A program made the translations under genes and the position numbers. Shown here piece after piece: positions 9,924 to 63,391 of a DNA stretch of 64,000 nucleotides; within the stretch, counting starts at the first letter, position 1, and each line of letters opens with the position of its first letter. The DNA is from Elusimicrobiota bacterium. GTDB lineage: Bacteria; Elusimicrobiota; Elusimicrobia; UBA1565. The notes under the pieces were generated by a model. The model made no database searches. It saw only the letters and a program-made list of their open reading frames with translations, and was not told where the DNA came from. The stretch is from assembly GCA_043819795.1 (NCBI GenBank), contig JBDREN010000083.1, forward strand, positions 1-64,000. Direction: 5' to 3'.

Positions 9924-12900
9924 TCATCCTCTCTTCGCTTCGACCGAAAGCGTCACAGTCGAGGTGCTGCCCGCGTCCTTCTTGCTCCGGAACTCGAAGG
10001 AACCGCCGTGCGCCGCGACGATCCGTTTCGCGATCGCCACGCCCAGCCCCAGGCCGCCGGCCTTCATGGTGTAGAACGGCCGGCCCACATCCTTGACGTG
10101 CTCCGGCGCCACTCCGGCGCCGGTGTCGGAGACCTCGACGCGGACGGTCCCGCGCGCCGCCTGATAGCGGGCCCTGATCGTCAGAGTGCCTCCCTCCGGC
10201 ATCGCCTCGATCGAGTTGAGCAGCAGGTGCAGCAACGCCTCCTTGAGCCGCTCCGAATCGCCGCGAAGCTCCGGGACACCCTCCGCGACATCCGCCACGA
10301 TCCTGATATGCTTCTCGTCGCACTGCCGGGCGACCTCCGCGACGGCCGAGTCGATCCACGCCTCGACCTCGAGCGCCTGCGGCTTCAGGCCCAGGGGGCG
10401 AGTGAAGTCCGTGAGCTGCTCCAGACGCTCCCGCAGGTTCCCGATCGCCCGGAGGATGGCGTCCATGGTCGCGCGCTCCTTGCCGCCGACCCACAATCCG
10501 GAGAGCCGGTCCTCCGCCAGGCTCTGGATGATGCCCAGCGGGTTGCGGATCTGATGGGCGATCCCGAAGACGAGATCGGTGAGCTCGGTCTCGAAGGCCA
10601 CCTGCGGCAGGCGCCCCGTCTCCGCCTCGGGCTTCAGCCCGGAGAGCAGCCGGTCGCGCAGCTGACGGAGCTCCCTCTGCCGCCGCTCGATGTCGACCTC
10701 CGCCCCGGCAAGCTTGTCCTCGCGCCCCTGGGACTGCCTTTCCCTGGCCGTCATCTCCTCATCGAGCTTCCGGCGACGACGCTCGAGCTCGGCCTCCTCA
10801 TTCTTGAGCCGCTCGCGCAGCTTCTTGTCCGTCCCCCGCAAGAGCTCCTCGACTTCCTCGCGGCGCCGCTCGACCTCCGCTTCCTTCTGAGCGGACTCGT
10901 CCATGAGGCGCTTCTCGCCGGACTGCTCGCGCTCCTTGAGCGCCTTATCGCGAGCGTCGAGCTCCGCCTCCCTCTTGTGAAGCTCGGACGACGCGGTTTC
11001 CTGCTGCTTCTGCAGGCGCTCGCCTTGGAGCCGCGCGGTCTGCTCGACCTGGACGGCGCTCTGCTCTTCGAGCTCCTTGCGGCGCTCATCGAACTCAGCC
11101 TCGAGCCTGGTGCGCTCCACCACGAGCCTCTTGCGGTTGGCGGCCAAGAGGGCCGACTCCTTCTCGGCCAGGACGGTCCGCATCTCGCGCTCGAGCTCCT
11201 CGCGACGCCGCGCCTGGTCCTCATCCGCCGCCCTCTGCGACTCGCGCAGCAGACGGCGCTCGTGCTCGAGCTGCGCGTCAAGGTCCCGCTCGTGCGCCAA
11301 ACGGCGCTCCTCCCCCTGCTTCTCCAGGAGGTCCTCGCGCTTGCGCAGCTGATCCTCCAGGCTCTCCGCGTGCAGGCGGAACTCCTCCTCCTTCTCCTTG
11401 AGCTGCGCGCGGAGATCGTCCTCTTTGGTCTGCAGATCCCGGTCGTAACGCGCGCGCTCCTCGCGCCGGATGCCGCGACGCGCCTCCTCGACCTTGTGCA
11501 GGAACTCCTTCTGAAGCGCGGCGCGCTCGGCGTCGAGGCCCTCCTCGCGCCTGGCCATCTCATCGCGCAGAGCGACGTGCATCTCCTCGGACGACTTGCG
11601 CAGCTCCGCGCGGTTGCGCTCCTGAGCCTCGCTGACCTCATTGAGCAGCGCCTCCTCCCGCTTCTTCCACGCGCGCTGAAGCTCCTCTTCCCTGCCCAGA
11701 TGCTCCCGCTGCAGGGCCGTCTCGCGCTCGCGGAAGTCGCGCTCGAGCTCGGCGCGGCGGGCGTCGAGCCCCGCACGGGCGCGCTCGAGCGCCTCGCGCT
11801 CCGCCGCGACGGACTGCCGCAGGTCGCTGCGCTCCCGCTCCAGCTCGGCCTCGCGTTCCTCGACCGACTCGCGCATGGCCGTCTCCTTGCGCGCGTAGGC
11901 TTCCCGCAGCTCCGTCTCCCGGGCCTTCAGCTTCCGGCGACTCTCCTCGACCTCGACCTCGAGCTCGGCCTTGGCCTTCGCCCAATCCTCCCGCAACGCC
12001 TCCCGCTGCGCATCGAGATGACCCGAGACCTCCGCCTCGGCCTCCTCGCGCGCGCGCCGCAGCTCGGCCTCCTTCTCGCTGACCGCCTTCTCCAGAGCCC
12101 GCTCCCTCTCGCGGTACTCCCGGGCCACTCCGCTCTTAAACGACTCCAGCTCCCGGGACCGCCGCACCTCCTCGGCCGCGAGCTCGGCGCGCTCCCGCTC
12201 GAGCTCCCCGTGACGCGCCTGGTAGGCGGCCTGCAACTCCTCCTGCCGGTTGCGATACTCGGCCTCCAGGCCGGCCCGGGCCTTTTCGACGTCCCGACTT
12301 CGCTCCGCCAGCGCGGCGCTCTTGCTCTCGATCTCCCGGACCTGCTCCTGCCGCTCCCGCTCGAAGCGCGCGGCCAGCTCGGTTCTCTGGTCGGCCAGCT
12401 CCTTGCGAAGCTCGGCCTCGCGATGAACGAAGGACTCCTCAAGAGCCTGCTCGCGCTTCCGGAGCGAATCCTCCACACGCTTTTGGGCCGCCCCCAGCCC
12501 CTCGGTCTGGCGTTCGAGCTCGGCCTGACGCGCGCGAACGCCCTGCTCCTGCTTCTGCTGCTCCATGGCCAGAGCATCGCGAAGCTCGGCCTCGCTCTGC
12601 GCGAACGACTCCTCAAGAGCCTGCTCGCGTTTCCGGAGCGAGTCCTCCACGCGCTTGCGGGCCGACTCCAACTCCTCGGTCTTACGTTCGAGCTCGGCCT
12701 GACGCGCGCGAACGGCCTGCTCCAGCGTCTGCTGCTCCGCGGCCAGCGTCTCGCGGTCGCGCTCGAAGCCGGCGCGCAGCTCCCGTTCGCGCAACGCCGA
12801 GGCGGAACGCACCCCCTCCTCCCGCGCCCGGAAGGCGTTCTCGAGCTGCGTCTCGCGCTCACGCAGGCTTTTCTCAACCTGTAATTTGGACGCGTCGAGT

Positions 12901-15900
12901 TCCCGCATCCGCCGCGCCAGCTCCGCCTCGAGGCGCTCGCGCTCAGCGGCGAGCTCCTCCTCTTTCTGCCGGACCGCCGATTCCACCTCGGCCGCGCGGT
13001 CGCCGTGCTCGCTCTCCAGCAGCGACCGCCGGTGCGCGAGCTCTTCTTGGAAAGCCTTGCGCTCCCGCTGCGTCCGGGCGGAAAGCTCCGCGTCCCGCTT
13101 GGCGAACCCCGCGCGCAGCTGTTCCTCCCGCGCCGAGTAGGCGCGCTGCAGATCGGCCTCACCCTCCCGCGCGCGCTCCTCGAGCGCGAGGCGAGCCTCC
13201 TCGAGCGCCTTTTCCTTGCGCGCGAGCTCGTCCTGTCGCTGCTCGGCGGCCTGATCGAGCTGCTTTTCCTTATATATGAGCTCGGCCTGGCGCTCGGCAA
13301 GGACGCGCTCGTGCTCCTCGTACGTCTCCTGAAGCCGCCGGCGCTCCTCGACGAGCGCGGCGCGCAGCTCGCTCTCTCGAGCCGCCAACGCCGAGCGCGA
13401 CTCCTCCTTCCGCTTCTCGAACTCGCGCTCGAGCCGCGCCTCGCGTTCCTGCAGCCTCTTTTCCTCGTCCATCCGGGACGTCTCCAGCTCGCGCTTCTTG
13501 CGCCCCGTCTCGTCCTCGATGCGGGTGCGCTCGCGCTCGATGGCCTCCTCCCTCCCGCGCAACACCAGGTCCATCTCACGCTGACGGTCCTCGAACGCCC
13601 GGTGCATCTCGGCGCGCTCGCTCTCCGACTCCACCTTGCGCCGCTCAAGACGCTCCATGGCCTGGGCGCGCTCGTTGTTCGCGGCGTCCTCGCGCTTCCG
13701 GAAGTCCGACTCGAGCTCCGATAGACGCTGCTGGTGGGCCTTCTCCAGATCAGCCTCCTGGGACCGGATCGCCTTCTCCAGCTCGAAACGCAGGCGGTCC
13801 AGCTCACCCTCCCTTCGGTCGTACTCGGCCTCAAGCGCGGCGCGCTGCTTCTCAAGAGCCGCCTCGAGCTTCCGTCGAGACTCGTCCTCCCAGCGGGCCT
13901 CGCGCTCGTTGAGACGCTCCGTGAAGGACCTGAGCTCGGCCGCCAGGCGGTCCTCGGCCTCGCGCTTCGAAAGATCCTGCTTATGCTCCCATTCGGCCTT
14001 CAACTCGGCCTCGAGCTGGAGGAAGTTCTTCTGAAGCGCATCTTCGCGCTCCCGGTAGAGAGCGTCGAGAGCGGCCCGCTCGCGGGACTGATTGTCCTGC
14101 ATCTCGGAGACCATCGCCTGCTCGCGCCGACGCAGATCCTCGCCAAGAGACTCGTCCTTGGACTTGTACTCAGCCTCGAGGGCCTGCCTCCGCGAGTCAA
14201 GGTCCTTGACGCGCGACTCCAGCTCGGCGGCCTGCGCCGCCATCGCCTTGCGATGCTCCTCCTGGAAGTGCTGGTACTCCTTCGCGATCTCCCTGCGCTG
14301 ATGGTCCAGCCAGGCGTCGTTGCGCTTCTTCATCTCCGCGCGGGACTCCGCGAGGCGGCGCTTGTACTCGCGCTCGAGATTGTCCTGCTGGTTCTTCAGC
14401 TCGGCTTCCCGCTGGGCGATCGCCTCGCGCATCTCGCCTGCGATGCGCTCGGTCTCGTAGCGTATGCGAGCGCGATAGCTCTCGCGCTCCTCGTCGACCT
14501 TCTGCAGCAGCTCGCTCTCACGCTGGCTCCACCGCTTCTCGAGCTCAGCCTCGCGCTCGAGATAGGACTTATCCAGCCTCGTCTCCTTCTCCCGCATCTC
14601 CTTTTGGAGCTGCGCCTGCAGCTTCTCCAGCTCCAGCTGCTTGCGCTCGTATTCCTCCTCCAGGACCGCACGTTGCGACTCGAGCTGCGCCGCCCTCTTG
14701 ACCTCGAACTCGGCCTCCGACTGGCGGACCTTGCGCTGGATCCCGTCCTCCTGCTCCTTGAGCGAGCGTTTGAGCTTCTCGGCGGACTCCTCCTCCAGGA
14801 GTTGGGCCTTGTGCGCCCGGTCATCCTTCAGCTGCTTCTCGAGGCTCACATAGTTCGAATGCAGGGTCTCCTCGCGGCTCCGGTAAAGCTCGTCGAGGGA
14901 CTGACGCTCCCGCGTCAGGACGACCTGCTGCTCCTCGATGAAGCGTCTCTCCCTGAGACGCCACTCGTCGGCGAGCTCCTCCTCCCGCTTCCGGTGGTAA
15001 GCCTGGAGGGCGTCGCGCCGCTTGGCCAGCTCACCCTCCCGCTCGTTCGACTCGGCGTTGAGCGCCTCGAGGTGGGCGCGGGCGTGCTCCTTCTGCTGCT
15101 CCCGTTCGCGGATGGTCATGCGGCGCTGGCGCTCCAGCCACTGCTCCTTCTCCTTCTCGGACTCGGCCAGGGCGTCTCTCTTCCAAGCTTCGAACCGCAC
15201 CGCCAGCTGCGAGTCCGCCTCCGCGAGGGCCGCGGCGTGCTGCTCCCGCTCCTTCTGACGCTCGGCCTCGAGCGCCTGCACGGTCTCCGCGAAGCGCTGC
15301 GCCTGCGCCTGGAGGGCTTCCTGCCGCCGCGAGAGGTATTCCCTCTCCTTGCCCGTCCATAGCTCCTGAAGGCCGCGCTCCATCTCGATGTACTTCTCCT
15401 CGCGCTGGGCTTCTCGGCGCTTCTGGGCCTCCTGAATGGAGACGCGCTCCGCCTCGTGCCGGCGCTCGCGCGACTGCAGGTCCTCCCAGAGCGCCCGCTT
15501 CTCCGCATCCAACTTCTCGAACTCTTCGCGGACGCGGCTCAGCTCCAGATCCTTCTCCGAAAGCTGCTTCTCGCGCTCCAGGAGCTCGCTCTGATGCCCT
15601 TCCTTCAGGTTCTTGACCCGAAGCTTCCACTCGGCCTCGCGCCGCTCGTACTCGGCGTCCAGGTGCCTGGCCTGCTGGAGCAGATGCCGGCCCTGCGCCT
15701 CCTTGAGCGCCCGGACCTCCGCGGCGTGAGCGTCCTTGGCTTCGGCCTCCCGGCGATCGTAGCGGTCCTCGAGGTCCCGCTCCAGGCGCGCGTAATCCTG
15801 CTTCATCTTCTCGGACCGGCCGAAGAGATCGGCCTCATCGCGCTGGCGCCGCTGGTCGTGCTCCTCCTTCGTCTTCTCCATCTCCATGCGGGCCGCGCGG

Positions 15901-17522
15901 CGCACCTGCTCCAGCGCGATCTCGTAGCGGCGCACCAGCTCGGCCTCCCGCAGGTGCCACTGCTTATCGAGGTTCTTCTCCTTCTGGATGTACTCCGAGA
16001 TCACGGTCTGCTTCCACGTCCGGAACTGCTCCTCGATCGTCTGCTGGGTCCTCTCCAGCTCGGCGACCCGGGCCTGGTAGGCCTCCTCGAGCGTCCGGTC
16101 GCGCTGCTCGAACTGCGACTTCAGGGAAGCCCGCTCGGCCTCGACGGCCTTCTCATGCTCCTCGAGGAGCTCCATCTTGCGGCGCGTCCACTCCTCGCGC
16201 AGCGCGTTCTCCTTCGCCAAGTACTGCTCCTGCATCTCCACGTGCTTGTGCTGGGAGGCCTCCTCGAGCGCCTTCTCGCGCTCTTGCACGCGGTTCTCGG
16301 CCTCCGCCCAGCGGGCGTTGAACTCGGCTTCGAGGGCGGTGCGTTGGCGGTCCCCGTCGCGCTGGACCTCGGCCTCCCGCCGCTCGAGGTCCCGGGACCG
16401 CGCCTGATACTCCTCCTCGAGGGCCTTGGCGCGCTGTCGCGCCCGCTCGGCGGCTTCCGCCTTTTCCTTCTCGAGCTCGTCCTCGACGCGCTTGAGCAGC
16501 TGCGCCTCCTTACGGATGTGGCTCTGCTGCTGCTGGGTCTCCATCTCGGCGTAACGCGTCTCCACGCTCTTCACACGCTTCTGGAAGTCCTCCTCCAGCT
16601 CCCGACGCCGGCGCTCGAGAAGCCCTTCGATCTCGCGCGAGCGGTCGGCCAGCGCGCGGGCACGCTCCTCGAACTGCTCCTGCACGGCCGTATCCAGCTT
16701 CTCACGCGCATCCTTCGCGCGCTGCCACAAGCCGTTCTCGAGCTCCGCCCAGGCGGCCTGCAGCTCGGCCTCGCGCTTGCCGTACTTCTCCTGCAGGGCG
16801 AGCTCCTTGGACCGGAACTCCCCGAAGAGCTTCTCCTCGCGCTCCTGGAGCTTGAGCTCGCCCTCCTTCGCGGCGGCGGCCAGCACCCGCTGGAACTCCT
16901 CGTTCTTGCGCCTAAGATCGAGTATCTCGCGCTCCTTGAGCTCGAGCTCCGCCTCGCGGTTCTTCAGCGTGTTGAGGATCTCCTCGTCGCGTTTCTGGCG
17001 CAGCCGCTGCACCATATCCTGGTCGCGGTGGAAACGGTTGACGAGCTCGGCCTTCTCGCGCTGGGAGGCCATCAGCTCGGCGTCGCGCTGCTCGAGAATG
17101 CGCCTGAGCTCCCGCCACTGCTCCTCCTTGGAGCGGTGCGTGCCCTTCCACTGCTGGACCTCTGCCGTCAGGCGGGACAGCTCCTCGTCCATGTGCCCGC
17201 GGTCGCGCTCCACGCGCGTCCGTTCCTCTTCGCGGACCTCGAGACGCACACGGTCGCGCCAGCGCTGCTCCTGATCCCGATGATTCTTGCGCTCCTCCTC
17301 CCAGCCTTTGGACTCGTCCTTCCATGCGGCGACCTGTCTCGTCAACTCCTCCTTCTCCTGCTGGAGCATCTGCTGTCCGTTCTGGGCTTCCTGGAGGTTC
17401 CCCTTGAGGCGCACATTCATATCCTGGAGGTCACGGATCGTGGCCACGGCCCCCCGGATCGCAAGTCGCGCAGCTTCCAGATCGGTTATCTCTCGATATG
17501 CCTCTTCATCCCATGGGTTCAT
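9924..17522 (-). CDS. Giant (2,532 aa) coiled-coil protein with C-terminal HisKA and HATPase_c domains
   Basis: About 2,300 aa of E/R/K/Q/L/A-rich heptad-like sequence. Then AHQIRNPL, LLLNSIEAM, DTGAGV, PFYTMK, GLGLG. GGGAGG SD before ATG 17522. Confidence 0.9.
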   Translation of the reverse strand: MNPWDEEAYREITDLEAARLAIRGAVATIRDLQDMNVRLKGNLQEAQNGQQMLQQEKEELTRQVAAWKDESKGWEEERKNHRDQEQRWRDRVRLEVREEERTRVERDRGHMDEELSRLTAEVQQWKGTHRSKEEQWRELRRILEQRDAELMASQREKAELVNRFHRDQDMVQRLRQKRDEEILNTLKNREAELELKEREILDLRRKNEEFQRVLAAAAKEGELKLQEREEKLFGEFRSKELALQEKYGKREAELQAAWAELENGLWQRAKDAREKLDTAVQEQFEERARALADRSREIEGLLERRRRELEEDFQKRVKSVETRYAEMETQQQQSHIRKEAQLLKRVEDELEKEKAEAAERARQRAKALEEEYQARSRDLERREAEVQRDGDRQRTALEAEFNARWAEAENRVQEREKALEEASQHKHVEMQEQYLAKENALREEWTRRKMELLEEHEKAVEAERASLKSQFEQRDRTLEEAYQARVAELERTQQTIEEQFRTWKQTVISEYIQKEKNLDKQWHLREAELVRRYEIALEQVRRAARMEMEKTKEEHDQRRQRDEADLFGRSEKMKQDYARLERDLEDRYDRREAEAKDAHAAEVRALKEAQGRHLLQQARHLDAEYERREAEWKLRVKNLKEGHQSELLEREKQLSEKDLELSRVREEFEKLDAEKRALWEDLQSRERRHEAERVSIQEAQKRREAQREEKYIEMERGLQELWTGKEREYLSRRQEALQAQAQRFAETVQALEAERQKEREQHAAALAEADSQLAVRFEAWKRDALAESEKEKEQWLERQRRMTIREREQQKEHARAHLEALNAESNEREGELAKRRDALQAYHRKREEELADEWRLRERRFIEEQQVVLTRERQSLDELYRSREETLHSNYVSLEKQLKDDRAHKAQLLEEESAEKLKRSLKEQEDGIQRKVRQSEAEFEVKRAAQLESQRAVLEEEYERKQLELEKLQAQLQKEMREKETRLDKSYLEREAELEKRWSQRESELLQKVDEERESYRARIRYETERIAGEMREAIAQREAELKNQQDNLEREYKRRLAESRAEMKKRNDAWLDHQRREIAKEYQHFQEEHRKAMAAQAAELESRVKDLDSRRQALEAEYKSKDESLGEDLRRREQAMVSEMQDNQSRERAALDALYREREDALQKNFLQLEAELKAEWEHKQDLSKREAEDRLAAELRSFTERLNEREARWEDESRRKLEAALEKQRAALEAEYDRREGELDRLRFELEKAIRSQEADLEKAHQQRLSELESDFRKREDAANNERAQAMERLERRKVESESERAEMHRAFEDRQREMDLVLRGREEAIERERTRIEDETGRKKRELETSRMDEEKRLQEREARLEREFEKRKEESRSALAARESELRAALVEERRRLQETYEEHERVLAERQAELIYKEKQLDQAAEQRQDELARKEKALEEARLALEERAREGEADLQRAYSAREEQLRAGFAKRDAELSARTQRERKAFQEELAHRRSLLESEHGDRAAEVESAVRQKEEELAAERERLEAELARRMRELDASKLQVEKSLRERETQLENAFRAREEGVRSASALRERELRAGFERDRETLAAEQQTLEQAVRARQAELERKTEELESARKRVEDSLRKREQALEESFAQSEAELRDALAMEQQKQEQGVRARQAELERQTEGLGAAQKRVEDSLRKREQALEESFVHREAELRKELADQRTELAARFERERQEQVREIESKSAALAERSRDVEKARAGLEAEYRNRQEELQAAYQARHGELERERAELAAEEVRRSRELESFKSGVAREYRERERALEKAVSEKEAELRRAREEAEAEVSGHLDAQREALREDWAKAKAELEVEVEESRRKLKARETELREAYARKETAMRESVEEREAELERERSDLRQSVAAEREALERARAGLDARRAELERDFRERETALQREHLGREEELQRAWKKREEALLNEVSEAQERNRAELRKSSEEMHVALRDEMARREEGLDAERAALQKEFLHKVEEARRGIRREERARYDRDLQTKEDDLRAQLKEKEEEFRLHAESLEDQLRKREDLLEKQGEERRLAHERDLDAQLEHERRLLRESQRAADEDQARRREELEREMRTVLAEKESALLAANRKRLVVERTRLEAEFDERRKELEEQSAVQVEQTARLQGERLQKQQETASSELHKREAELDARDKALKEREQSGEKRLMDESAQKEAEVERRREEVEELLRGTDKKLRERLKNEEAELERRRRKLDEEMTARERQSQGREDKLAGAEVDIERRQRELRQLRDRLLSGLKPEAETGRLPQVAFETELTDLVFGIAHQIRNPLGIIQSLAEDRLSGLWVGGKERATMDAILRAIGNLRERLEQLTDFTRPLGLKPQALEVEAWIDSAVAEVARQCDEKHIRIVADVAEGVPELRGDSERLKEALLHLLLNSIEAMPEGGTLTIRARYQAARGTVRVEVSDTGAGVAPEHVKDVGRPFYTMKAGGLGLGVAIAKRIVAAHGGSFEFRSKKDAGSTSTVTLSVEAKRG
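12405..12720 (-). repeat. Internal tandem duplication with 174-bp (58-aa) period in the giant kinase
   Basis: CGTTCGAGCTCGGCCTGACGCGCGCGAACG occurs at 12511 and 12685. VRARQAELER...KRVEDSLRKREQALEESF occurs twice. Confidence 0.9.
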
Positions 17523-17628
17523 GGTCGCCTCCCATGGAGATGGACGCGGCCATCCCCTGCGCGATGCTCGGTCATGGTCGCCTCCCACGGCAGTCGACGC
17601 GACCATTTCCTGCGCTATGCTCGGTCAT
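17519..17628 (-). repeat. Two tandem 53-bp mini-ORF/SD cassettes upstream of the giant kinase
   Basis: ATGs at 17628, 17575 and 17522. The units encode MTEHSAGNGRVDCRGRRP* and MTEHRAGDGRVHLHGRRP*, each ending in an ATGA overlap. Confidence 0.85.
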
Positions 17629-17844
17629 AACACTGCCTCCAGGTAGATACGTCCGCCCCCCACGATGGGGCGATGCCCTATAGCACGAACTCTCTCTTCA
17701 ACGTTAGTGTATAGCCGCAACCGGAAAAATCAAGCACTCTCAGCCATTACTTGGCCGAGCCTCGGCGGGTTCCCAGATCCGACTCCTAGCCTAGGGAAAG
17801 GATAACGGGGGGTAATTACAGATTCTTTAACGAAAATCGGGGCC

Positions 17845-18071
17845 TAACAGTCCGTGGCAAAAGTCTTCCGGGGCCTGCGATCGCCTGGATGCGGCCTGCG
17901 CCCGCGTTGCTCCTCGGTCACACCGGGCCCCGGCAGGGGCCCAGTGCCGCACGACCTCAGGAAATGCTTCGGAGCGCTGTCATCCCGTAGAGGGATGCTA
18001 CCTCGTCGCGCCTTGGCTCGGCTCGCCCCGGACGATTTCGCCATCCGAAATACTTTTGCCACGGACTGTTA
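17845..18071. mobile_element. MITE-like element, family A (complete, with a 60-bp internal insertion)
   Basis: Perfect 20-bp inverted repeat TAACAGTCCGTGGCAAAAGT, including the terminal TA. Homologous to 1-138. Its end overlaps the stop codon of the PAS kinase. Confidence 0.85.
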
Positions 18072-19136
18072 AGGCCGCGATCGAGCGGGGAAGACAACGG
18101 TGACGGCCGTCCCTCGGCCGGCCTCGCTGTCGAAGGAGATGGTCGCCTCGTGCTCGGCCAGGACGCGCTTGGCGAGATAGAGCCCCAGACCCGTGCCGTC
18201 CTCTTTGGTCGTGAAGAAGGGCGCGCTGACCTTCGCCAACACCTCGGGCGCCATCCCCGCGCCCGAGTCCCCCACGACGAGACGCGCCCCCCCCCGCTCC
18301 GGGACGTCCGTGACGACGCGCAGGCGCCCCCCTTTCGGCATGGCCTCGATCGCGTTGACCAGCAGGTTATGGACCACGGCGCGGACATGCTGCTCGTCGA
18401 GGAGCAGTCTCGGGATGTCGCCGAGCCGCACATCGAGCTCGATCCGCTGCTTCTGGCACATCTTCTCGACGAGACGGACGACGCCGCGCGCCACCTCGTT
18501 GAGCGAGCCCTCGCGCAAGAGAGACTTCCCCACCTTGGCGAAGTCCAGAAGGGCCCGTATCGAAAGCGACCCGTGCCGGGCGTTGCGGAGGATCATCTCG
18601 AGGTTCTCTTTCATCTTGGAGTCGGGGGAGAGGGACTCGAGCCCGAACTCGGCCGTGCTGGCGATGACGTGCAGCGGCGTGCGCATCTCGTGAGCGAAGG
18701 TCGCCGCCATTCGCCCGACAGCGCTGAAGCGCTCCATCCTGACCAACGCCTCCTGGACGGCCTTGTGCTCGGGGGCCGTCTCGAAGTCGGCCACGGGGGG
18801 GCTGATCATGACGAGGAAGGCCTCGGGGCCCTTCCCCAGCGAGCGGACGGTCAAGAACACCCTTTCCGGGCTCCCGTCGCGGCGCGTCATCCGCGCCTCG
18901 TAGTTTTTGAGCACCTTCACGTTGCAGGCCGCCTTGAGCAATCCGACGCATTCCTCCCGCCTCGGGAAGAACTCCGCGAAGTCGCGATCGACAGCCTCCT
19001 CGAGGGGGACGCCAAGGAGCTCGGCGGCTCCGCGGGACCACGTCCGGACCACGCGGGAACCGTCGAGCCCGACGAGCGCATCCTCGGACTCGTCGAACAT
19101 GCAGGCGAAAAGGCGGTCTTTCAACCGTTCTTCCAT
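18069..19136 (-). CDS. PAS-domain sensor histidine kinase (cytoplasmic)
   Basis: PAS (WSRGAAELLG, RRDGS), AHEMRTPL, NLLVNAIEAM, DSGAGM, PFFTTK, GTGLGL. Confidence 0.92.
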   Translation of the reverse strand: MEERLKDRLFACMFDESEDALVGLDGSRVVRTWSRGAAELLGVPLEEAVDRDFAEFFPRREECVGLLKAACNVKVLKNYEARMTRRDGSPERVFLTVRSLGKGPEAFLVMISPPVADFETAPEHKAVQEALVRMERFSAVGRMAATFAHEMRTPLHVIASTAEFGLESLSPDSKMKENLEMILRNARHGSLSIRALLDFAKVGKSLLREGSLNEVARGVVRLVEKMCQKQRIELDVRLGDIPRLLLDEQHVRAVVHNLLVNAIEAMPKGGRLRVVTDVPERGGARLVVGDSGAGMAPEVLAKVSAPFFTTKEDGTGLGLYLAKRVLAEHEATISFDSEAGRGTAVTVVFPARSRP

Positions 19137-20464: not shown

Positions 20465-23400
20465 ATGCGGCGGACCAATGGGCCCAGGTGGGTTCTACTC
20501 GCGGCCTGCGCGTTGAGCCTCCAGGGCGCCGCCCGCGCCGGGACCGGTCCCCGTCCCTCTCCGAAGAGACTCCAGGAAGAGAAGCTGCCCGGCGCCATCG
20601 TCGCGAGGCTCCCTGTTCCCGCCGCCTTCGCGTCTCCGGGGGCCCCGGCTTCGACGCTCTCCTCTCCGGCGGTCCTGCTCGCGCGGGAGATCGATGAGCT
20701 GTTCGCCGGCCTGAGCAGTGAGACCAACGACGGCACGCGGGCTCTCCGCCAGCCGGCTCCGGAAAAAGCCCCGCCCCGGGGAACCGGCTCCGGACGGCTT
20801 TCGTCGCGATCGTCTCCCGCGGCGGGAACGCGCGAGCCCGCCGAGGTTTTCGCCGCCCTGGACCGACGGCTCTCCGACATCCGCGCCCGGATCATCGATA
20901 CGATCGACGATCCCGAGGAGGTCGCGATCCTCCTGGCCCGCGTCGACCGGATCCGTGGCGTCCTGGCCAAGCTCCGGAGGGCCGGGGAAACGGGCCAAGC
21001 CCGTTCCCTGTCCGGGGCGATGGCCGGACTGGCGCGGGCCCTCGGGCGGGGGACCGATGACGAGAACCTCTCCAGGTTCGAGACCCTGGTCGACCGCCTG
21101 ATGCAAGCGCGGTCGCTGCCCCCCGACCGGCTCGGAACGATCTTCGACAACACGCCCGAGTTCCCGGACAGCGATGTTCTCGCCCCCGTCCCGGCGGAGG
21201 GCTTCAAGGCCCGGGCCCCGCGAGCAAGGGCGAGCGGAGCGGGCGTTTCGCAAGCGGCCCTGTTGGACATCGACCGCTACCCACGGCCCCTGACCGGGAT
21301 CCGTGTCGACGGCGGCGTCGTTCCGAAGCCGAGAGGGCCGGGAACCTCGGCCAAGGCCGAGCCGGAGTCCGAGGTCGGCCGCCCACAGCGACGAGCGGTC
21401 ACCGCTTCGCAGGGGCTTGAGCGCTCGGCTGTCGCGGCGCTCTCGCCCTTCGCGGGACTGAGCCCGAAAGGCCGCCAGGACCTGTTCCGAAAGGACCGGG
21501 CCGCTCTCAGGCGGGAGCTGCTCGCCGTCGGACTCCGGGCGCTCGAGGAGGGCGACGCGGAGCTCGAGCCGTATCGGGAGGATCTGGACGCCGCGGACGG
21601 AAGGCTCTCCGGGATGCGTAAAGCGCTGCTGGCCCGGCTCGGGTTCGATGCGCCCCCGCACAACGACCAGGAGCGCAGCGGGCGGTTCGCGACTCTCACG
21701 AAAGAAGCCCCCCATCTGTCTCTCTATTTCGCGCGGCGCGGGATTTACCAGATGCGCATGCGGCAGGCCCACGGCGAGCATGCCGTGCCGCCGGAGACGC
21801 GCTTCGCACCCTGGGAACTCGGCATCGAGGACGGCAGCGAGAAAGCCGTCGTCTACGCTACGGCCAAGGACGGCGACCGCACGTTCTACGGGCTGCGCCG
21901 GGAGTTCCAGGACGGCTCCTCGCGCTTCGCGGCGACCGACGGAGCGGAGGGGCTGGTCGTCGTGGTGTCCCCCTCCGATAGCCGCGAGATCCGCACGCGT
22001 ATCCGTTTCGACGACCAGGGCCGGCCGGATCGCACCCGGACCTCGATCATCGACACGGGGACCGGCAAGAGGATCCGGGAGGAGATCGCCGACATCGCGC
22101 GGGCGCTCACGCGCTTCGTCGATTACGATCAAGCCGGCGACGCGGTGAGGGTCCTGACCCTGGACAGCGGCACCGGCGAGCAGGTGGTGGAGGACCGCCG
22201 GCAGGGCCGCCGCGTCGCGACCGACAAAGACGGAAAGGTCACGATCACGCCGATCCGAGGCGGAGCCCAAGCCTGGCAGCAGCAGGGCCGGCTCGATGAG
22301 AGCGGCCGCTTCATCCTCGACCGCCTGGTGCGCGAAGACGGCAGCGTCGTCGAGCGCGTCAGCCCGCACGTCCTGAAGATATCGCGAGACGGCAAGGCGC
22401 AGGGCTATGAGATCGTCGTCGACTCCATCTTCCATGGCGCCCGGGGGCCTGAGCGCGAAGCGGAGTCCTCCAGGATCGCCCGCGAGATCATCGCGGCGCT
22501 CGGCTACCAGGACAAAGACGACCGGCGCTCGCGCCCCCTTAGCAACTGGCTCTCCGACACCTGGACGAAGGACGAGCGGACGCGCGGCGTCGCGATGACG
22601 GTCGATCCGCGCGGAAGGTTCCAGGTCGTCTACAGCTACAAAGACGGGACCAAGCGCATCGAGCGCGCCAAGTACGGCCTTTCGACCTCGTACGGCGACG
22701 GGAAGCGGGAGCTCGCGCTCGTGACGCTGAGGCCGGTCCATACCGACCGCCAGGGCCGGGCGCGGCTGGACCCCCGGCGCTACCGCGAGTACCTGGCCGG
22801 CGGCGGCTACAACCAGTGGCATTCCACTTTCGAGTTCAAGAAGGCCGGCTGGTTCTCGAACGCGAAGACGATCGAGCACGTCTCCCTCATCCGCTACGGC
22901 CGGGACGGAAGCCTTCCACGCCTGGGTCCCGGGAGCGGGGGCGAGCGGGACGGAGACTCCGGCAGCGGCCGCTGGACGGAACGCGGCCGGGAGAAGAAGG
23001 ACGAATTCGTCAATGAGGTCGGCGGGACATCGACCTTCGGCATCGTGGGGACCGCGATCCATGAGGCGCCGGTGGTCGGGGACGTCCTGCAGGCCGGCGG
23101 AGCGGTCGGAAAGACGCTCTGGACGGGCATCATGGCGGCTCCGCCCACCTTCATCTATGCGGTCACCAAGGACACGGATTACGGCCTCGCCATGTCGGGA
23201 AGCTACGCGAAGAACCCCCTGGTGAACCGTCTGGTGGGAGACCAGGGACACCTCGACCGCATGGACGGCAAGATGTGGGAGGTCGTCCTTATCGAGGCCC
23301 GCGAAAACCGCCGAAAAGACCTCGATCAGATGGGCTACACCGAGGGGAATACGGACCCGGAGGAGCATCAGCGTTTGCTCTCCCAATGGCGCGGAGACCG

Positions 23401-29602: not shown

Positions 29603-31027
29603 GTGCCGAAGCCGGAACCGACACCGCGGCCGGAGACCCCGCCCATAGCGGGACGGAAGCCTTCAACGCCTGGGCCCCGCGAGCGAGGGCGAGCGGGACG
29701 GACGCGCCGGCTGCTGGCCTTCGCGTTGCTCGCCGGGGCGTTGGCGCGCTTCGCAACGGCATTCCTCTATTGGGAAGCGCCGCTCAGCCCGGGCGGCGAT
29801 GACCTCCAGTACCATGAGCTGGCCTCCGGGATCGCTTCCGGGCGGGGATACCTCCTGCAGGACGAGCCGAGCGCCTACCGCGGCCCTCTCTACCCCCTCT
29901 TTCTGGCGGCGGCCATGCGGGTGACGGCCAGCGACGCGCCCGGCGTCCTCCGGCTCATCCAGGCGATCCTGGGCCTGCTGGCCCTCTGGCTCGTCTACCG
30001 TCTAGGCGCGGCCATCCATTCCCCCGAGGCGGGCGCCTGGGCGGCGATGCTCATGGCTCTCTATCCGGAGCAAGTCCTGCTCCCGACGTCGCTCTACACC
30101 GAATGCTTCTACGCCTTGATCCTGCTCGTCGTGGCGTGGGCGCTCGCATGCTGGCGGCAAGACCCCCGGCCGGCGCGGCTCGCGGGGCTCGGCGCCGCGA
30201 TCGGCCTGAGCCTGCTGACGCGTTCGACGCTGGCGGCCTTGCCCGTCCTGCTCGCGGCTTGGCGGCTCGCGGAGCTCCGCGCCGGACGACGGTGGCTGCG
30301 GGAAACCGCCCTTCTCGCCGTGACCGTTCTGCTGCCGCTCACGCCCTGGATCGTCCGCAACTACGCGCGTTTCGGCAGGGTCATCCCCATGGAGACCGGC
30401 GTCGCCGGTCCCGCGTTATGGTACGCCTCCAAGGGCTGGGTCACGGCGCCCTCGGACATGTCCAGCGTGGAGCCGATGAGGACGATGTACCGGAGGCTTC
30501 CGCATACCGAGTGGGACCGCTTCGCGACGCCGCGAGCCCTGCGCAACATGCGGGCCCGCCCGATGGCGTATCTTCTCGGATGCGCGAAGAGGGCTCTCTA
30601 CCTTTGGACCACCGCATACACCCCCTACCTGCTCTACTACCACCACCGCCTCTCGGCGTGGATGCAGAGCGGCGGCCGCTGGAGCTGGATCGCCCTGGGC
30701 GACTGGCTCCTTCGGCTCTGCCTGATCCTGCCGGGGGCCTGGGTACTGCTCCGCAGCGCGCGAAAACGCGGCGGAAGCCTTCAGCGCCTGGGCCCCGCAC
30801 CGGCCTCCAACGCAAATCCAAAGGGAGGCCGGCACGGCGCCCCTACCGGGGTGGACGCCGCGAGCACGGGCGAGCGGGGGCTTTGGGCGGTGGCCGGTTT
30901 GGTCCTATACTTCCACATCCACGTCTTCGCGACGGTCTTCGTCCGCTACATGGCGCCGGTGACGCCCCTGCTGTGCGTCCTGGCCGGGGCGGGGTGGGCC
31001 GAGTGGCGAGCCTCGCGCCGAGGCTAA
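29603..31027 (+). CDS. GT-C (ArnT/PMT-like) membrane glycosyltransferase; start uncertain
   Basis: DDLQY, AYRGPLYPLFLA, LYTE, PWIVRNY, RY. Many TM helices. Confidence 0.8.
   Translation: MPKPEPTPRPETPPIAGRKPSTPGPRERGRAGRTRRLLAFALLAGALARFATAFLYWEAPLSPGGDDLQYHELASGIASGRGYLLQDEPSAYRGPLYPLFLAAAMRVTASDAPGVLRLIQAILGLLALWLVYRLGAAIHSPEAGAWAAMLMALYPEQVLLPTSLYTECFYALILLVVAWALACWRQDPRPARLAGLGAAIGLSLLTRSTLAALPVLLAAWRLAELRAGRRWLRETALLAVTVLLPLTPWIVRNYARFGRVIPMETGVAGPALWYASKGWVTAPSDMSSVEPMRTMYRRLPHTEWDRFATPRALRNMRARPMAYLLGCAKRALYLWTTAYTPYLLYYHHRLSAWMQSGGRWSWIALGDWLLRLCLILPGAWVLLRSARKRGGSLQRLGPAPASNANPKGGRHGAPTGVDAASTGERGLWAVAGLVLYFHIHVFATVFVRYMAPVTPLLCVLAGAGWAEWRASRRG
29654..29696 (+). repeat. 43-bp dispersed repeat, copy 3
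   Basis: CGGAAGCCTTCAACGCCTGGGCCCCGCGAGCGAGGGCGAGCGG. Read as RKPSTPGPRERGRA. Confidence 0.9.
30772..30877 (+). repeat. 43-bp dispersed repeat, copy 4, split by a 63-bp insertion
   Basis: 5' part 30772-30798 and 3' part 30862-30877. CCGC occurs at both junctions. Confidence 0.75.
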
Positions 31028-44073: not shown

Positions 44074-44173
44074 CGGAAACCTTCAACGAGCGGACCCCGC
44101 GAGCGAAGGCCGGCGAGACGGAGGCCGGGACGGAAGCCTTCAACGCCTGGGTCCCGCGAGCAAGGGCCAGCGA
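44074..44173 (+). repeat. Two tandem copies (6 and 7) of the 43-bp dispersed repeat, 57-bp period
   Basis: 44074-44116 is degenerate and 44131-44173 is near consensus. Confidence 0.85.
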
Positions 44174-54792: not shown

Positions 54793-55906
54793 CGAACGCG
54801 GCTTCCGCGGCGGCGAGCGCCAGCTCCTGTATCTGGCCGCTCATCTGCGCGCCCGGGGTCACGAGAACGTCGTGGTCTGCCGGGGACGCGAGGCCCTCGA
54901 GGCCGAGGCCCGCCGCCAGCGCTTCCGAACGATGCGCCTACCCTTCCTCGGCGAATGGGACCCGGTCTCCGCGTGGCGGCTCCGGAGGGCGTCCCGGTCG
55001 GCGCGGCACGCCCCCGTGCTCCACGCCCACACCGCTCACGCCGCCGCCCTCGCCTACCTGGCGTCGCGCTTCGGAGGTCCCCCGTGGGTGGCGCACCGCC
55101 GCGTCGACTTCCACCTCAACGGCTCGCTCAGCCGCCGTCTCAAATACGACACCGCGCCCCGCGTGATCGCCGTCTCCGAGAGCATCCGCCGCATCCTGGT
55201 CGCCGACGGAATGGAGGGCTCGCGCATCACGGTCGTCCCGGACTGCATTCCTCTCACTGACGATGAGGCGCGCCTCGCGGGTCTCGACGCCGGTCCGATG
55301 CGCCGGGCCACCCGCTCGGAAACCGCCGCCATACGCCGTCCCCTCGCCGAGAACCTGGGCCTTCCCGAGACCGGGCCCTGGATCGGCAACCTGGCGGCCC
55401 ACGTTCCGCACAAGGACCAGGCGACCCTGATACGAAGCCTGCCTTCTGTGCTGAAGGCGCTGCCGAAAGCGCGCCTGCTGCTCGTGGGCGACGGCCCTCT
55501 CCGGACGGAGCTCGAGGCGCTGGCTCGGTCGCTGGGCGTCGAATCGGCCGTCCGCTTCGCCGGCCACCAGAGCGATCCGGCGCCGTGGCTGAGCTGCCTC
55601 GACGTCTACGTCCAGTCGTCCTGGGGAGAGGGGATGGGATCGGTGCTTCTCGAGGCGATGGCCTGCGGCGTCCCGATCGTCGCGACGACGGCGGGAGGGA
55701 TACCCGAGGTGATCGAGCACGGGCGCAGCGGGCTCCTCGTGCCCCCGCGCGATCCGGAGCGAATGGCGGGTGCGATCGTCGACTCCTTGCTCGATCCCGA
55801 AAGCGCCCGGCGCAGGGCGGACGCGGCGGCCGAGGATCTGAAGTCTTTCGGCCTCAGCCGCGTCGGTGACCGCATGATCGCGCTCTATCGCGAGGTGACG
55901 GAGTGA
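54758..55906 (+). CDS. Glycosyltransferase family 4
   Basis: RGGERQ, HRRVDF, HKDQ, EGMGSVLLEAMACG, GGIPE. Confidence 0.92.
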   Translation: MAKRFTLFHLDSERGFRGGERQLLYLAAHLRARGHENVVVCRGREALEAEARRQRFRTMRLPFLGEWDPVSAWRLRRASRSARHAPVLHAHTAHAAALAYLASRFGGPPWVAHRRVDFHLNGSLSRRLKYDTAPRVIAVSESIRRILVADGMEGSRITVVPDCIPLTDDEARLAGLDAGPMRRATRSETAAIRRPLAENLGLPETGPWIGNLAAHVPHKDQATLIRSLPSVLKALPKARLLLVGDGPLRTELEALARSLGVESAVRFAGHQSDPAPWLSCLDVYVQSSWGEGMGSVLLEAMACGVPIVATTAGGIPEVIEHGRSGLLVPPRDPERMAGAIVDSLLDPESARRRADAAAEDLKSFGLSRVGDRMIALYREVTE

Positions 55907-56016
55907 CCGAGCATAGCGCGGTTTCGGCTGCGTGCCTCAGCCATTCCCTCGCGTTTGGCCGCAAACGCTTCGGTCACAGGAATGGTCGCGTCGATCGCCG
56001 CGGGAGGCGACCATGA
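55903..56016 (+). repeat. Third copy of the mini-ORF/SD cassette, with a net +57-bp in-frame insertion
   Basis: GTGACCGAGCATAGCGC...AGGAATGGTCGCGTCGATCGCCGCGGGAGGCGACCATGA. Encodes a 37-aa ORF MTEHSA...NGRVDRRGRRP*. Confidence 0.85.
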
Positions 56017-56816
56017 AGCCGAAGCTGAGCGTCATCGTCATCGCCCGCGACGAGGAGCGAGACCTGCCGGCCTGCCTCGAGAGCGTGCGGGGCCTCGACG
56101 CCGAGATCATCGTCCTGGACAGCGGCTCGACCGACCGCACGCGCGAGATCGCCCGCCGGTTCACGCCCCATGTCTTCCAGCAGCCCTTCCGGGACTTCGG
56201 CTCCCAGAAACAGTCGGCCTTGGAACGCGCCTCGGGCGAATGGGTCCTCTCTATCGACGCCGACGAACGCCTGAGCGGCGAGCTGCGCCTGGAGATCGCC
56301 CGCCTGATCGAGTCCCCCCCGGGCGGCGTCTCCGGCTACGACATCCCTTTCGAGGTCCACTTCATGGGCCGCCGCCTCCGGTTCGGCGGCCTGGGCCGGG
56401 AGCGGCACCTGCGCCTGTTCCGGCGCGGGGCCGGGGTCTTCACCGGAAACCACCTTCACGAGGGCGTCTCCGTCACGGGGGCGACGGCGCGCGCGGGCGC
56501 GCCGATCCGGCACATCCCCTACCGGGACCTCGACGACTATCTGGGGAAGCTGCGCGTCTACACGACCCGGGCCGCCCGCAAGAGATTCGACCAGGGGCGG
56601 AGGTTCCACCCGCTCCACCACCTGCTGCCGCTTTGGGAGTTCTTCCTGCGCGTCGTGGTGAGGCTCGGGATGCTGGACGGGACCCCCGGCCTGCTTTGGG
56701 CGGGGCTCTCTTCGTTCCATACGTGGATCAAATACGTGAAGCTGCGCGAGATCGCGGAGGAGCCCGGAAGCCTTCCACGCCTGGGTCCCGCGAGCAAGGG
56801 CGAGAGGAAGCGGTGA
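56013..56816 (+). CDS. Glycosyltransferase family 2 (WaaE/KdtX-like)
   Basis: LSVIVIARDEE, DSGSTDRT, WVLSIDADE, RLFRR, HE. Confidence 0.92.
   Translation: MKPKLSVIVIARDEERDLPACLESVRGLDAEIIVLDSGSTDRTREIARRFTPHVFQQPFRDFGSQKQSALERASGEWVLSIDADERLSGELRLEIARLIESPPGGVSGYDIPFEVHFMGRRLRFGGLGRERHLRLFRRGAGVFTGNHLHEGVSVTGATARAGAPIRHIPYRDLDDYLGKLRVYTTRAARKRFDQGRRFHPLHHLLPLWEFFLRVVVRLGMLDGTPGLLWAGLSSFHTWIKYVKLREIAEEPGSLPRLGPASKGERKR
56765..56807 (+). repeat. 43-bp dispersed repeat, copy 8 (forms the GT2 C-terminus)
   Basis: CGGAAGCCTTCCACGCCTGGGTCCCGCGAGCAAGGGCGAGAGG. Read as GSLPRLGPASKGER. Confidence 0.9.
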
Positions 56817-61334: not shown

Positions 61335-63391
61335 TGCCGCCCGCGGCCCTCCGGCGCCTGAAAGAGCCGGCGATCGTGCTCCTGATCCTGGCGGCGGCGA
61401 TCGCCGTCGTCTACGCCGTCGTCCTGGGAGCGCCCGTCGTATACGACGACGACGTCCTGGTCCGGGGGAACCCGGCGTTCCTCCTCCCGCCGGCGGAGTT
61501 CTGGAGCCGCCTTTGGTCGCTCGACTATTTCGCGTTCACGCAGGAGCGCTCTTACCAGCCGCTCGTGACGCTGCTGCACTACCCGCTCTTCCGGCTGCCC
61601 TGGGCGTACCGGAGCCTGGGACTGGCTCTGCACGCGGCCAACGGCCTGCTCGTCTACGCGATCGGCCGCCGGCTCGCGTTCGGCTCCGGCCAAGCGCTGG
61701 CCGCGGCGCTCCTGTTCGCGCTGTTCCCGGCGTCCACTGAGGCCCTCAACATCTCGTCGTTCAAGGGCCACCCGCTCGCGCTCGCGTTCTCCCTGAGCAC
61801 GCTGCTCGCCTGGATGCGAACCGGCGAACGGCCTTCGGCCCCGGCCCCGCTCGCCCCCGCTCGCGGGGCCCAGAAATTGAAGGCTTCCGCCCCGCTTCTC
61901 CTCGCCCATCTTTCGCTCGTCTTCGCCCTGCTGTCCAAAGAGACCGGGCTCATCGCCCCGGCGCTCGTCGTCGTCCACGCGCTGTGCTATCTGCGCGGGC
62001 GGCCGCGGGCGGCTCTCTGGCGCGCTTCGGGCCTGCTGGCGCTCAGCGCCCTCTATCTTTGGTTCCGCTTCGGGCTGCTCCCGCCGCCCCCTTCCCTGGC
62101 GCCCGGGGAACGTGCCGTCGCGACGCTCTGGCTCCCCTGGGAGTCCTTCGGCTGGTACTTAAAGACCCTGATCGCGCCGCTGCCCCTCTGCCTGGAGCAT
62201 TCCCTGGACCACGGGCCCTCGGCGACGGCCCGTGCCGGGGCCGCCTTCCGCATGCTCTTGCCCGCGCTCTACGCCTTGCTGCTGTGGCGCTGGCGGCGCC
62301 GGTCCGACAGGCTCTTTTTGCTGCTCTGGATACTCGCCGCCACGCTCCCCTTCCTGCACCTGATCCCGTTCTCCAACTACAGCCCGGTCGCCGACCGCTA
62401 CCTCTACGCGGCCTCGGCCGGTCTCTCGCTTCTGGCGGTCCGCGGTCTCTGGGACACGCGCATGAGGGCCGCCCTCCTGGCCGTCGCGCTCGCCTGGGGC
62501 GCGCTTTCCATCGCCCGCAACGCCCTGTATAGGGACACCCGCGCCCTCTACGAGCAGACCGCCGCGTGCGCTCCCGGCAACCCGCGCGCGCACGCCCTGC
62601 TGGCGGGCTGGCACTACAGCGCGGGGCGCGATTATCCCGCGGCGCTCGAGGGCTTCCGCCGGGCCTTCGCCTTGGCCCCGGAGCTCTTGTCCCACTTCCG
62701 CGACCCGGGACTCGTGCATGCGCAGCGCCCCTCGTATATCCTCGGGCTGATCCATCACCGGATGGGCGACGAAGACCGGGCCGCCGAGCTGCTCGAGCGG
62801 GCGCTGGGAGCCGAAAGCCGGCCCCTCGCCCGCGCCGCCCTCCATGAGAAGCTGGGCGACGTCCACGGGGCGCGGGGGGACCTCTCCCGGGCGCTGGCCG
62901 AATACCGGGCCGCGCGCGCCATCCTGCCGCACTGGGGATTGCCGTACCTCAAAGAGGGCCTCGCGCTCCAGACGAGCCAGCCCGCGCGTGCTCTGGCTCT
63001 CATGGAGCGCTCCCGCGCCCTGACCCCGGACCACGACGAGCCCCACCGCCGCCTGCAGGCCAGGATCGACCGGCTGCTCGGGGACGCCTATCTGGCGCAA
63101 GGGATGCCCGAGAGGGCCGTTCGCGCCTGGGAGTCGGCCGAAGCCAAGGTCCCGGGCCGACTGGACCTCCTGCTCCACCTAGCCGACACCTACCGGAGCA
63201 TCGGGGATCGATCGGCTTCCGCTTCGGCCTACCGCCGCGCCCTGGCCGCGGCGGACCGGACCCTCGCCCGGCTTCGCCGGCTTCCGGAGGCCGGCGCCGG
63301 CACGGCTGAGTCGGAGAGGCTCATCTCCTCCGTGCGCCGGCAGGCGCGGAAGGCGGAGGCGGCGCTCCGAGAGCTCGAATCGGCCCCCTGA
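61334..63391 (+). CDS. TMTC-like GT-C membrane glycosyltransferase with TPR repeats
   Basis: YDD, YQPL, LH..N..L, ALLSKE, ADRYLY, then TPR helices. Confidence 0.8.
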   Translation: MPPAALRRLKEPAIVLLILAAAIAVVYAVVLGAPVVYDDDVLVRGNPAFLLPPAEFWSRLWSLDYFAFTQERSYQPLVTLLHYPLFRLPWAYRSLGLALHAANGLLVYAIGRRLAFGSGQALAAALLFALFPASTEALNISSFKGHPLALAFSLSTLLAWMRTGERPSAPAPLAPARGAQKLKASAPLLLAHLSLVFALLSKETGLIAPALVVVHALCYLRGRPRAALWRASGLLALSALYLWFRFGLLPPPPSLAPGERAVATLWLPWESFGWYLKTLIAPLPLCLEHSLDHGPSATARAGAAFRMLLPALYALLLWRWRRRSDRLFLLLWILAATLPFLHLIPFSNYSPVADRYLYAASAGLSLLAVRGLWDTRMRAALLAVALAWGALSIARNALYRDTRALYEQTAACAPGNPRAHALLAGWHYSAGRDYPAALEGFRRAFALAPELLSHFRDPGLVHAQRPSYILGLIHHRMGDEDRAAELLERALGAESRPLARAALHEKLGDVHGARGDLSRALAEYRAARAILPHWGLPYLKEGLALQTSQPARALALMERSRALTPDHDEPHRRLQARIDRLLGDAYLAQGMPERAVRAWESAEAKVPGRLDLLLHLADTYRSIGDRSASASAYRRALAAADRTLARLRRLPEAGAGTAESERLISSVRRQARKAEAALRELESAP
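61847..61889 (-). repeat. 43-bp dispersed repeat, copy 9 (inverted, in a loop between TM helices)
   Basis: Reverse complement is CGGAAGCCTTCAATTTCTGGGCCCCGCGAGCGGGGGCGAGCGG. Read as PLAPARGAQKLKAS. Confidence 0.88.

Follow-up and report, generated by a model that had tools for sequence, protein, structure and literature searches.

The window analysed here is a 64,000-nucleotide stretch of DNA from an Elusimicrobiota bacterium (assembly GCA_043819795.1, contig JBDREN010000083.1, positions 1 to 64,000), and it carries on its minus strand a histidine kinase gene (9924..17522) preceded by a tandem array of two 53-nt repeat units (17519..17640). The kinase start at 17522 opens an open reading frame (ORF) of 2532 codons, and orthologues in relatives begin at the same methionine; the product, which is conserved in the order, is a coiled-coil-like protein of 2532 aa bearing a histidine-kinase domain at its C-terminus. 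The native Shine-Dalgarno (SD)-like GGAGG of this gene (17636..17640, minus strand) now lies 7 nt ahead of the first ATG of the array (17628). At the empty site of relative G005 the same CCTGGAGGC context that is found at the focal GGAGG precedes the kinase ATG directly.

Both units are short coding cassettes read from the minus strand. Unit 1 (53 nt, 17628-17576) carries an 18-codon mini-ORF (17572..17628) that ends, with a stop codon at 17574-17572, in an overlap with the start of unit 2; unit 2 (53 nt, 17575-17523), a diverged copy identical to unit 1 at 44 of 53 positions, carries a second 18-codon mini-ORF (17519..17575) that ends in the same way on the kinase ATG. Both overlaps, of a TGA with the ATG after it, span 4 nt, and the three ATGs lie in three different frames. 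Within unit 1 a left module CC-GA-GC-loop-GC-GCA-GG (17609..17624), which is a variant of the family motif CC-GA-GC-loop-GC-GA-GG, is followed by a right stem-loop (17574..17606) in which ATGGTCGC pairs with GCGACCAT; it spans the spacer as well as the AU of the AUG that follows, and GGGAGG (17586-17581) is partly paired. The corresponding stem-loop of unit 2 (17521..17553, GGGAGG at 17533-17528) has a single C-A mismatch and is weakly predicted. A preliminary description of this DNA, made from the sequence alone, had reported the signals, mini-ORFs, overlaps and stem, all of which are present; its suggestion that the stem would occlude both SD and start agrees with prediction for the spacer and the AU of the AUG, which are predicted to be paired in context, and only in part for the SD, which is predicted to be partly paired. 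A practical effect of the array is the displacement of predicted starts: the ORF finder places the kinase start at 17606, within unit 1.

The focal units belong to a dispersed family. BLAST and profile searches recovered 28 units at 18 loci on 14 contigs of this genome, 19 full units matching at E<=4e-13, far beyond chance. In 24 units the lengths are 53, 56, 59, 110, 113, 215 or 218 nt, all 2 modulo 3, with the mini-ORF open and coupled to the next ATG by the 4-nt (-4) overlap; when metagenome copies are included the lengths are 47, 53, 56, 59, 107, 110, 113, 215 and 218 nt, again all 2 modulo 3. All 18 arrays end on a start codon, as the preliminary description expected of every copy, and in 17 of them this ATG agrees with the start chosen by a crude hexamer-based gene model (at the focal gene the model chooses an in-frame ATG further downstream). 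By this model 1783 RTGA sites lie at starts and 5617 in non-coding DNA, so that 18 of 18 at starts is very unlikely to result from random placement among tolerated sites (about 1e-11 if sites are independent). The upstream gene stops at the first TGA of the element in 13 of 17 loci (a contig-edge locus being omitted), against 30-31% of RTGA starts; the focal locus is among the four without this overlap and retains its native SD. The flanking junctions include murA|folC, recN|gltX, dxr|rseP, nuoB|nuoC, ribE|ribBA, hldE|kdsB, gmhB|hddA-like and mrpD|mrpD. The third copy noted in the preliminary description (55903..56016, plus strand) is indeed a family member, in a different shape from the focal units: it is a 110-nt long form with a mini-ORF of 37 codons. 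A GT4 gene that terminates at the first TGA precedes it and a GT2 gene with its start at 56013 follows it, and it contains a nested 57-nt inverted copy of a related 59-nt subfamily (55920..55976, minus strand).

Orthologous sites are mostly empty in relatives. At dxr|rseP none of 29 relatives is filled (30 of the 39 best matches examined); dxr is adjacent in 20 of them, with a -4 RTGA overlap in 13 of the 20. At nuoB|nuoC one of 29 relatives is filled, by another subfamily, while none of 28 is filled at nuoA and none of 19 at the kinase start (19 of the 29 matching relatives examined). The 107 genes found downstream of foreign copies, that is copies from other genomes, fall into 97 clusters; 43 such target genes map to this genome, where 40 are empty and 3 filled (the automatic call was 41, nuoC being removed as a mis-called start at a filled site). 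Because the sites are mostly empty in both directions, the element very likely moves, as the preliminary description had suggested. A few sites (nuoC, HPr, secA, gltX and hddA) recur across genomes with different subfamilies.

The distribution of the family is patchy. Of 401 genomes sampled from the phylum 29 contain it, including 23 of the 59 other genomes of its own order and 5 elsewhere in the class, and no control matches were obtained; a strict pattern gave no match in 40 relatives and a looser one recovered the family. Each genome has its own set of variants. A scan of GTDB found at least 112 loci; among the matches listed, 90 are titled Elusimicrobia or Elusimicrobiota, 8 "bacterium" and 1 Pseudomonadota, 13 loci of other taxa having been dropped as chance matches. 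Two family members (L162, L064) lie in records titled Pseudomonadota and Endomicrobium, which may be misbinned or mislabelled contigs, or reflect transfer. No family match was found in viral contigs, and plasmids gave only 26-29-nt matches at E 0.9.

What is conserved in the family is the reading frame and the stem, not the peptide. After de-duplication 118 foreign units remain: 93 show the -4 coupling, 18 terminate no more than about 30 nt from the ATG, 6 are in-frame fusions and 1 is of another kind; 106 of 112 foreign arrays precede an ORF of at least 60 codons. Internal stops had been named beforehand as an observation that would count against the cassette: of 95 distinct units of length 2 modulo 3, 4 have such stops in the mini-ORF frame, against 21 and 81 in the other two frames. 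Counted as distinct kinds, there are 4 against 14 and 13, with similar mutational opportunity across the frames. At the level of sequence the family passes the refuting check that the preliminary description had set. The lengths of the left and right halves compensate each other, 11 of 17 length classes being 2 modulo 3 (p 0.008, the classes not being independent). With these compensating halves two different peptides are encoded, MTEHSAGNG.. and MTEHSEEMV..; a function of the peptide was rejected because two frames of the core are in use. A metagenome scan in which only the left half was fixed returned 25 distinct sites, one of them truncated at the edge of its contig. Each of the 24 complete copies runs up to a start codon, with -4 coupling in 21 (two read by eye) and an early stop in 3.

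The right stem is 95% paired, against 27-52% in slid controls, and shows 25 double-change cells against 7.2 in shuffled data, figures that are inflated by the relatedness of the copies. In the left modules (63 distinct) the inner pairs vary between GC/GC, GT/AC and GG/CC, and the module is predicted to fold as a small hairpin with tandem G-A mismatches. The SD, described at first for both focal units, is not conserved in the family: an SD-like duplex occurs in 70 of 109 right halves and is thus optional.

The junctions do not support a clean duplication of the target. The tetranucleotide direct repeat is commonly ATGA/ATGA, and the base before the left TGA is A in 96 copies, G in 18, T in 3 and C in 1; where the right end was not fixed, a left-hand GTGA was accompanied by a right-hand ATGA in 8 of 9 cases. 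From this pattern it follows that the repeated core is TG(A), the element usually supplying the A and turning GTG into ATG. Six copies end in ATGG or ATGC, three with a stop 2-9 nt before the ATG, one stopping at +10 and two in frame. A CC after ATGA is enriched (28/114 against 34/337), part of which may be decayed tandem copies.

On the sequence evidence, the element favours stop/start overlaps and leaderless-looking starts, by targeting or by tolerance. Foreign first units that lack an upstream overlap number 49. In 24 of them TAnnnT lies 4-9 nt ahead of the start (with a peak at 6), none of the 24 having an SD, and a shifted control window gives 2 of 49; 12 of the 49 have an SD, which in 4 of the 12 probably derives from a preceding decayed unit. 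The background for starts, taken from crude starts of this one genome, is 102 with TAnnnT against 393 with SD. A pause consensus of RNA polymerase is not supported as a targeting cue, since G at -10/-11 is not raised above its level at ordinary overlaps. TAnnnT about 6 nt upstream, with no SD, is also seen at many starts of the order (L053, L071, L113, L127, L140, L143 and others), which suggests that leaderless genes may be common in Elusimicrobiota.

A 54-nt sister subfamily (CGACCGAG..GCGGC) has the same left end, and inserts in frame within genes and in a 161-bp terminal-inverted-repeat (TIR) transposable element of the miniature inverted-repeat type (MITE) of this genome. A filled copy of the MITE is 54 nt longer than an empty one; the junction is ambiguous by 1 nt, and nothing is duplicated. 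The sister and its composites lie in the tail of PBP2, in ferrochelatase-like and PlsX-like genes, in an unnamed ORF (3 copies) and in an IS91-like transposase (C30:45875, C30:14796, C190:23806, C138:3859, C85:1232). The simplest reading of these junctions would be insertion 5' of a YG step that resembles the element's own 5' end.

We propose that the 53-nt unit is probably a non-autonomous selfish element living on start codons, tolerated through ribosome restart on the overlapping ATG. Ribosomes would enter the mini-ORF from the native SD, from the upstream gene or at a leaderless start; reading the mini-ORF, they would unfold the stem and then reinitiate at the ATG that overlaps the stop, and insertion would therefore cost little. 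That the unit spreads by insertion and that its frame is kept by selection for translational coupling is very likely, the terminating mini-ORF ribosome being expected to open the stem over the spacer and AUG. As to the route of movement our suggestion is tentative: a 5'-TGACC...ACCA-3' element may enter directly 5' of a target TG(A), without true duplication, through a single-stranded DNA intermediate and an HUH-type nuclease acting in trans and reading the tandem-GA hairpin, by analogy with IS200/IS605 and TnpA-REP. Head-to-tail arrays could then form by insertion at the element's own junction or by unequal recombination.

Several observations weigh against this proposal. In this genome 4 of the 28 units lack the -4 coupling, three of them, of 54 nt, sharing the frame of the ATG that follows and the fourth being 37 nt long (C177, C190). 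It is lacking also in 25 of the 118 foreign units, which are in-frame fusions or stop early; one copy (L343) has GTGA on both sides. The RTGA background derives from a crude gene model of one genome, and the copies are related, so that counts overstate the independent events. The folding energy of the focal units is no better than that of shuffles (z -1.18 and -0.07), and the stem of unit 2 is absent from the centroid structure; for this reason covariation was used instead as structural evidence. Among candidate mobilisers in this genome, which is 90% complete, none of the RAYT-like/Y1 (7 matches), IS91-like Y2 (3), IS110 (2) and reverse transcriptase (4) loci is flanked by the element. The presence of Y1 does not track the element across the order either, and is uninformative, since Y1 occurs in 62 of 71 genomes and is missing from 3 element-positive ones.

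The genome has five long RAYT-like Y1 ORFs of 290-330 codons (C72, C102, C198, C96, C140), and several Y1 ORFs are flanked by short inverted repeats of their own, starting GTCAGGC and unrelated to the element. One of the IS91-like Y2 ORFs holds an inverted sister copy, read as a passenger. On a contig of 3.3 kb, an IS91-like Y2 transposase gene (C91:1207-2919) immediately follows a tyrosine-recombinase-like gene.

Local tandem duplication or an assembly artefact would account for the identical units of some arrays (C103, C231, C10), and slippage may explain copy number within arrays; as a full explanation it is refuted by the 9 of 53 positions at which the focal units differ and by the dispersal of the family over 14 contigs and many independent assemblies, and we consider it extremely unlikely. 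The cassette might instead be selected by the host for regulation, the hairpin blocking independent initiation so that the gene depends on upstream translation and copy number tunes output. Stem covariation, housekeeping targets and the few sites that recur with different subfamilies fit such a role, which is nevertheless quite unlikely given that most sites are genome-specific (97 clusters among 107 genes, 40 of 43 orthologous sites empty here), that the targets have no functional theme, that presence in the order is patchy and that the SD is optional.

Two other explanations concern how the element reaches its sites. It may insert at any TG(A), whether at a start or not, with all but the copies at start codons being lost through purifying selection and deletion bias; this concerns targeting only, and is compatible with restart by ribosomes. 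Within coding DNA an insertion would be lethal or selected out, a copy at a start would be shielded from decay because it carries the ATG of the gene, and the flank preference is weak. Yet there are three non-coding RTGA sites for every start site, and they hold none of the 18 loci, the 54-nt sister does persist in non-coding DNA, and the long ORFs behind nearly all foreign arrays (106 of 112) also speak for a preference, so that insertion without preference seems doubtful. The second is spread through RNA, a reverse transcriptase or reverse splicing copying the unit into mRNA positions defined by ribosomes, such as overlaps and leaderless starts. The constant co-orientation of free-standing copies with the gene and the bias towards -4 overlaps and leaderless-looking starts are in its favour, and the genome contains three full matches to RVT_1 as well as the end of a group II intron, whereas nested copies are inverted, the reverse transcriptase loci are not flanked by the element and the element has no RNA family match; we regard it as unlikely. 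Rfam covariance models gave no match to the element among 5 loci (E<=1), the only match being the group II intron end, whose 3' domains lie at a contig end 1.2 kb upstream of one array (L010:3352-3450, C122).

Other features surround the focal gene. The kinase is charged, its N-terminus is matched in 29 of 40 relatives, and the open frames there range from about 400 to 2860 aa. A palindrome-like motif GCCCCATCGTGGGGG (17671-17656 in the window) is conserved 25-45 nt before the kinase start in several relatives (L293, L294, L296, L297, L300, L302), and is possibly a regulatory site or hairpin. No sigma-70 promoter or terminator was called at 17500-18100, and among contigs from three DNA sequencing runs none spanned the focal array. 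Upstream of the gene lies a copy of the TIR MITE (17848-18068), 221 bp long and carrying an additional hairpin of 60 bp as an insert, which is missing from other contigs; in this genome the MITE is typically 161 bp, with 15 complete copies and mostly CTAG flanks, and its core also has a GG-GA-GC-stem-GT-GA-CC motif. A GC-rich in-frame repeat of 45 nt with 58 BLAST matches in the genome, CCGC-GA-GC-NNN-GGC-GA-GCGG, has a tandem-GA motif of the same type as the cassette (29650-29703, 22902-22954, 44127-44172, 56765-56807, 61846-61893 in the window, and others).

The closest known system is that of the interspersed repetitive units of mycobacteria (MIRUs), whose design has reportedly been known since Supply et al. 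in 1997. MIRUs are described as apparently mobile, inserting at start codons and having an internal ORF coupled at -4 (PMC12548453); other papers give lengths of 40-100 bp, copy numbers of 40-50, sites both filled and empty, and direct repeats of four nucleotides (PMC3184786), and units of 77 and 53 bp at senX3-regX3 (PMC4213456). The ribosome relay advanced in the preliminary description is already in print for MIRUs. We searched 301 Actinomycetes with a motif from the Elusimicrobiota unit and a free spacer, chosen with MIRUs in mind and so not blind; counts were mostly background, 0-7 per genome, and MIRU-type units were found in 2 of 5 genomes followed up (G644, G546). These are 50-101 nt long and start with xTGA, with CA-GA-GC-NNN-GC-GA-TG then AGG; several also differ at the first base of the left and right tetranucleotides. 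Their picker demanded TGA..TGA in frame, so their length modulo 3 is by construction and was not used. One sits at a PhoR-like|PhoB-like (sensor-kinase|regulator) junction, which we take to be senX3|regX3.

Like MIRUs, the Elusimicrobiota units are dispersed and tandem, with basic units of 53-59 nt (composites to 218 nt) in tens of copies; they share the co-oriented mini-ORF coupled at -4 to the downstream gene (24/28 own units, 93/118 foreign, 21/24 with a free right end), insertion at start codons with filled and empty sites, and the xTGAC start with stem-GA-GC-NNN-GC-GA-stem then AGG, the focal copies having a GCA variant of the second GA. They differ in phylum and in having nested or composite forms to 218 nt and an in-frame 54-nt sister, and the GA motif, which lies inside one long stem in MIRUs, is here 5' of a separate terminal stem. 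No whole-length homology to MIRUs was found (reciprocal profiles E>=0.44 and >=0.098, pairwise scores within the shuffled range). The Elusimicrobiota cassette would work like a MIRU, which by sequence it is not.

Other classes of repeat resemble the cassette in part. HUH enzymes of the REP/IS200/IS605 type are described as reading stems with conserved mismatches on single-stranded DNA (PMC8266576), and REP-associated tyrosine transposases (RAYTs) as flanked by their own repetitive extragenic palindromes (REPs) (PMC2817692). With REPs, bacterial interspersed mosaic elements (BIMEs) and REPINs the family shares small imperfect hairpins, mosaic arrays and genome-specific subfamilies, together with long Y1 genes in the genome. 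It differs in having no GTAG/GTGG head, in its place on start codons rather than extragenic DNA, and in that the five long Y1 ORFs are flanked by other inverted repeats. Membership in REP/RAYT fails, there being no GTAG/GTGG-headed palindrome in the alignments and no cognate rayt flanked by the repeat. Rickettsia palindromic elements (RPE) insert in frame inside genes. The 54-nt sister, likened by description and not by sequence, does the same, while the 53-nt form is 2 modulo 3 and lies between genes. Like TIR MITEs the element is short, non-autonomous and dispersed; unlike them, its ends TGACC../..ACCA are not mutual inverted repeats, its stem is internal and there is no faithful target duplication, and the genome holds a separate true TIR MITE of 161 bp that serves as a target for the sister.

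A search of literature listings, which do not cover subscription papers, found no paper describing this family in Elusimicrobiota. The present analysis contributes the test for stop depletion, the junction without duplication, the bias towards leaderless starts and the motif common with real MIRUs. As a speculation that we hold to be rather unlikely, MIRUs, the 53-nt cassette, its 54-nt sister and the 45-nt repeat could form one mobile class with a stem-GA-GC-loop-GC-GA-stem hairpin, one single-strand nuclease acting in trans and non-duplicating insertion 5' of YG; length modulo 3 would set the niche (2 at starts, 0 inside genes), and the coupling form would be aimed at SD-independent starts. 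If true, this would give a handle on how MIRUs move. The GA-hairpin motif common with MIRUs and the non-duplicating junction are leads to the mobiliser. In this family natural variants number in the hundreds and come with sites both filled and empty, which MIRUs lack, with selection on frame and stem and not on the peptide, and the strategy of MIRUs, that of hiding at start codons and relaying ribosomes, is not limited to mycobacteria.

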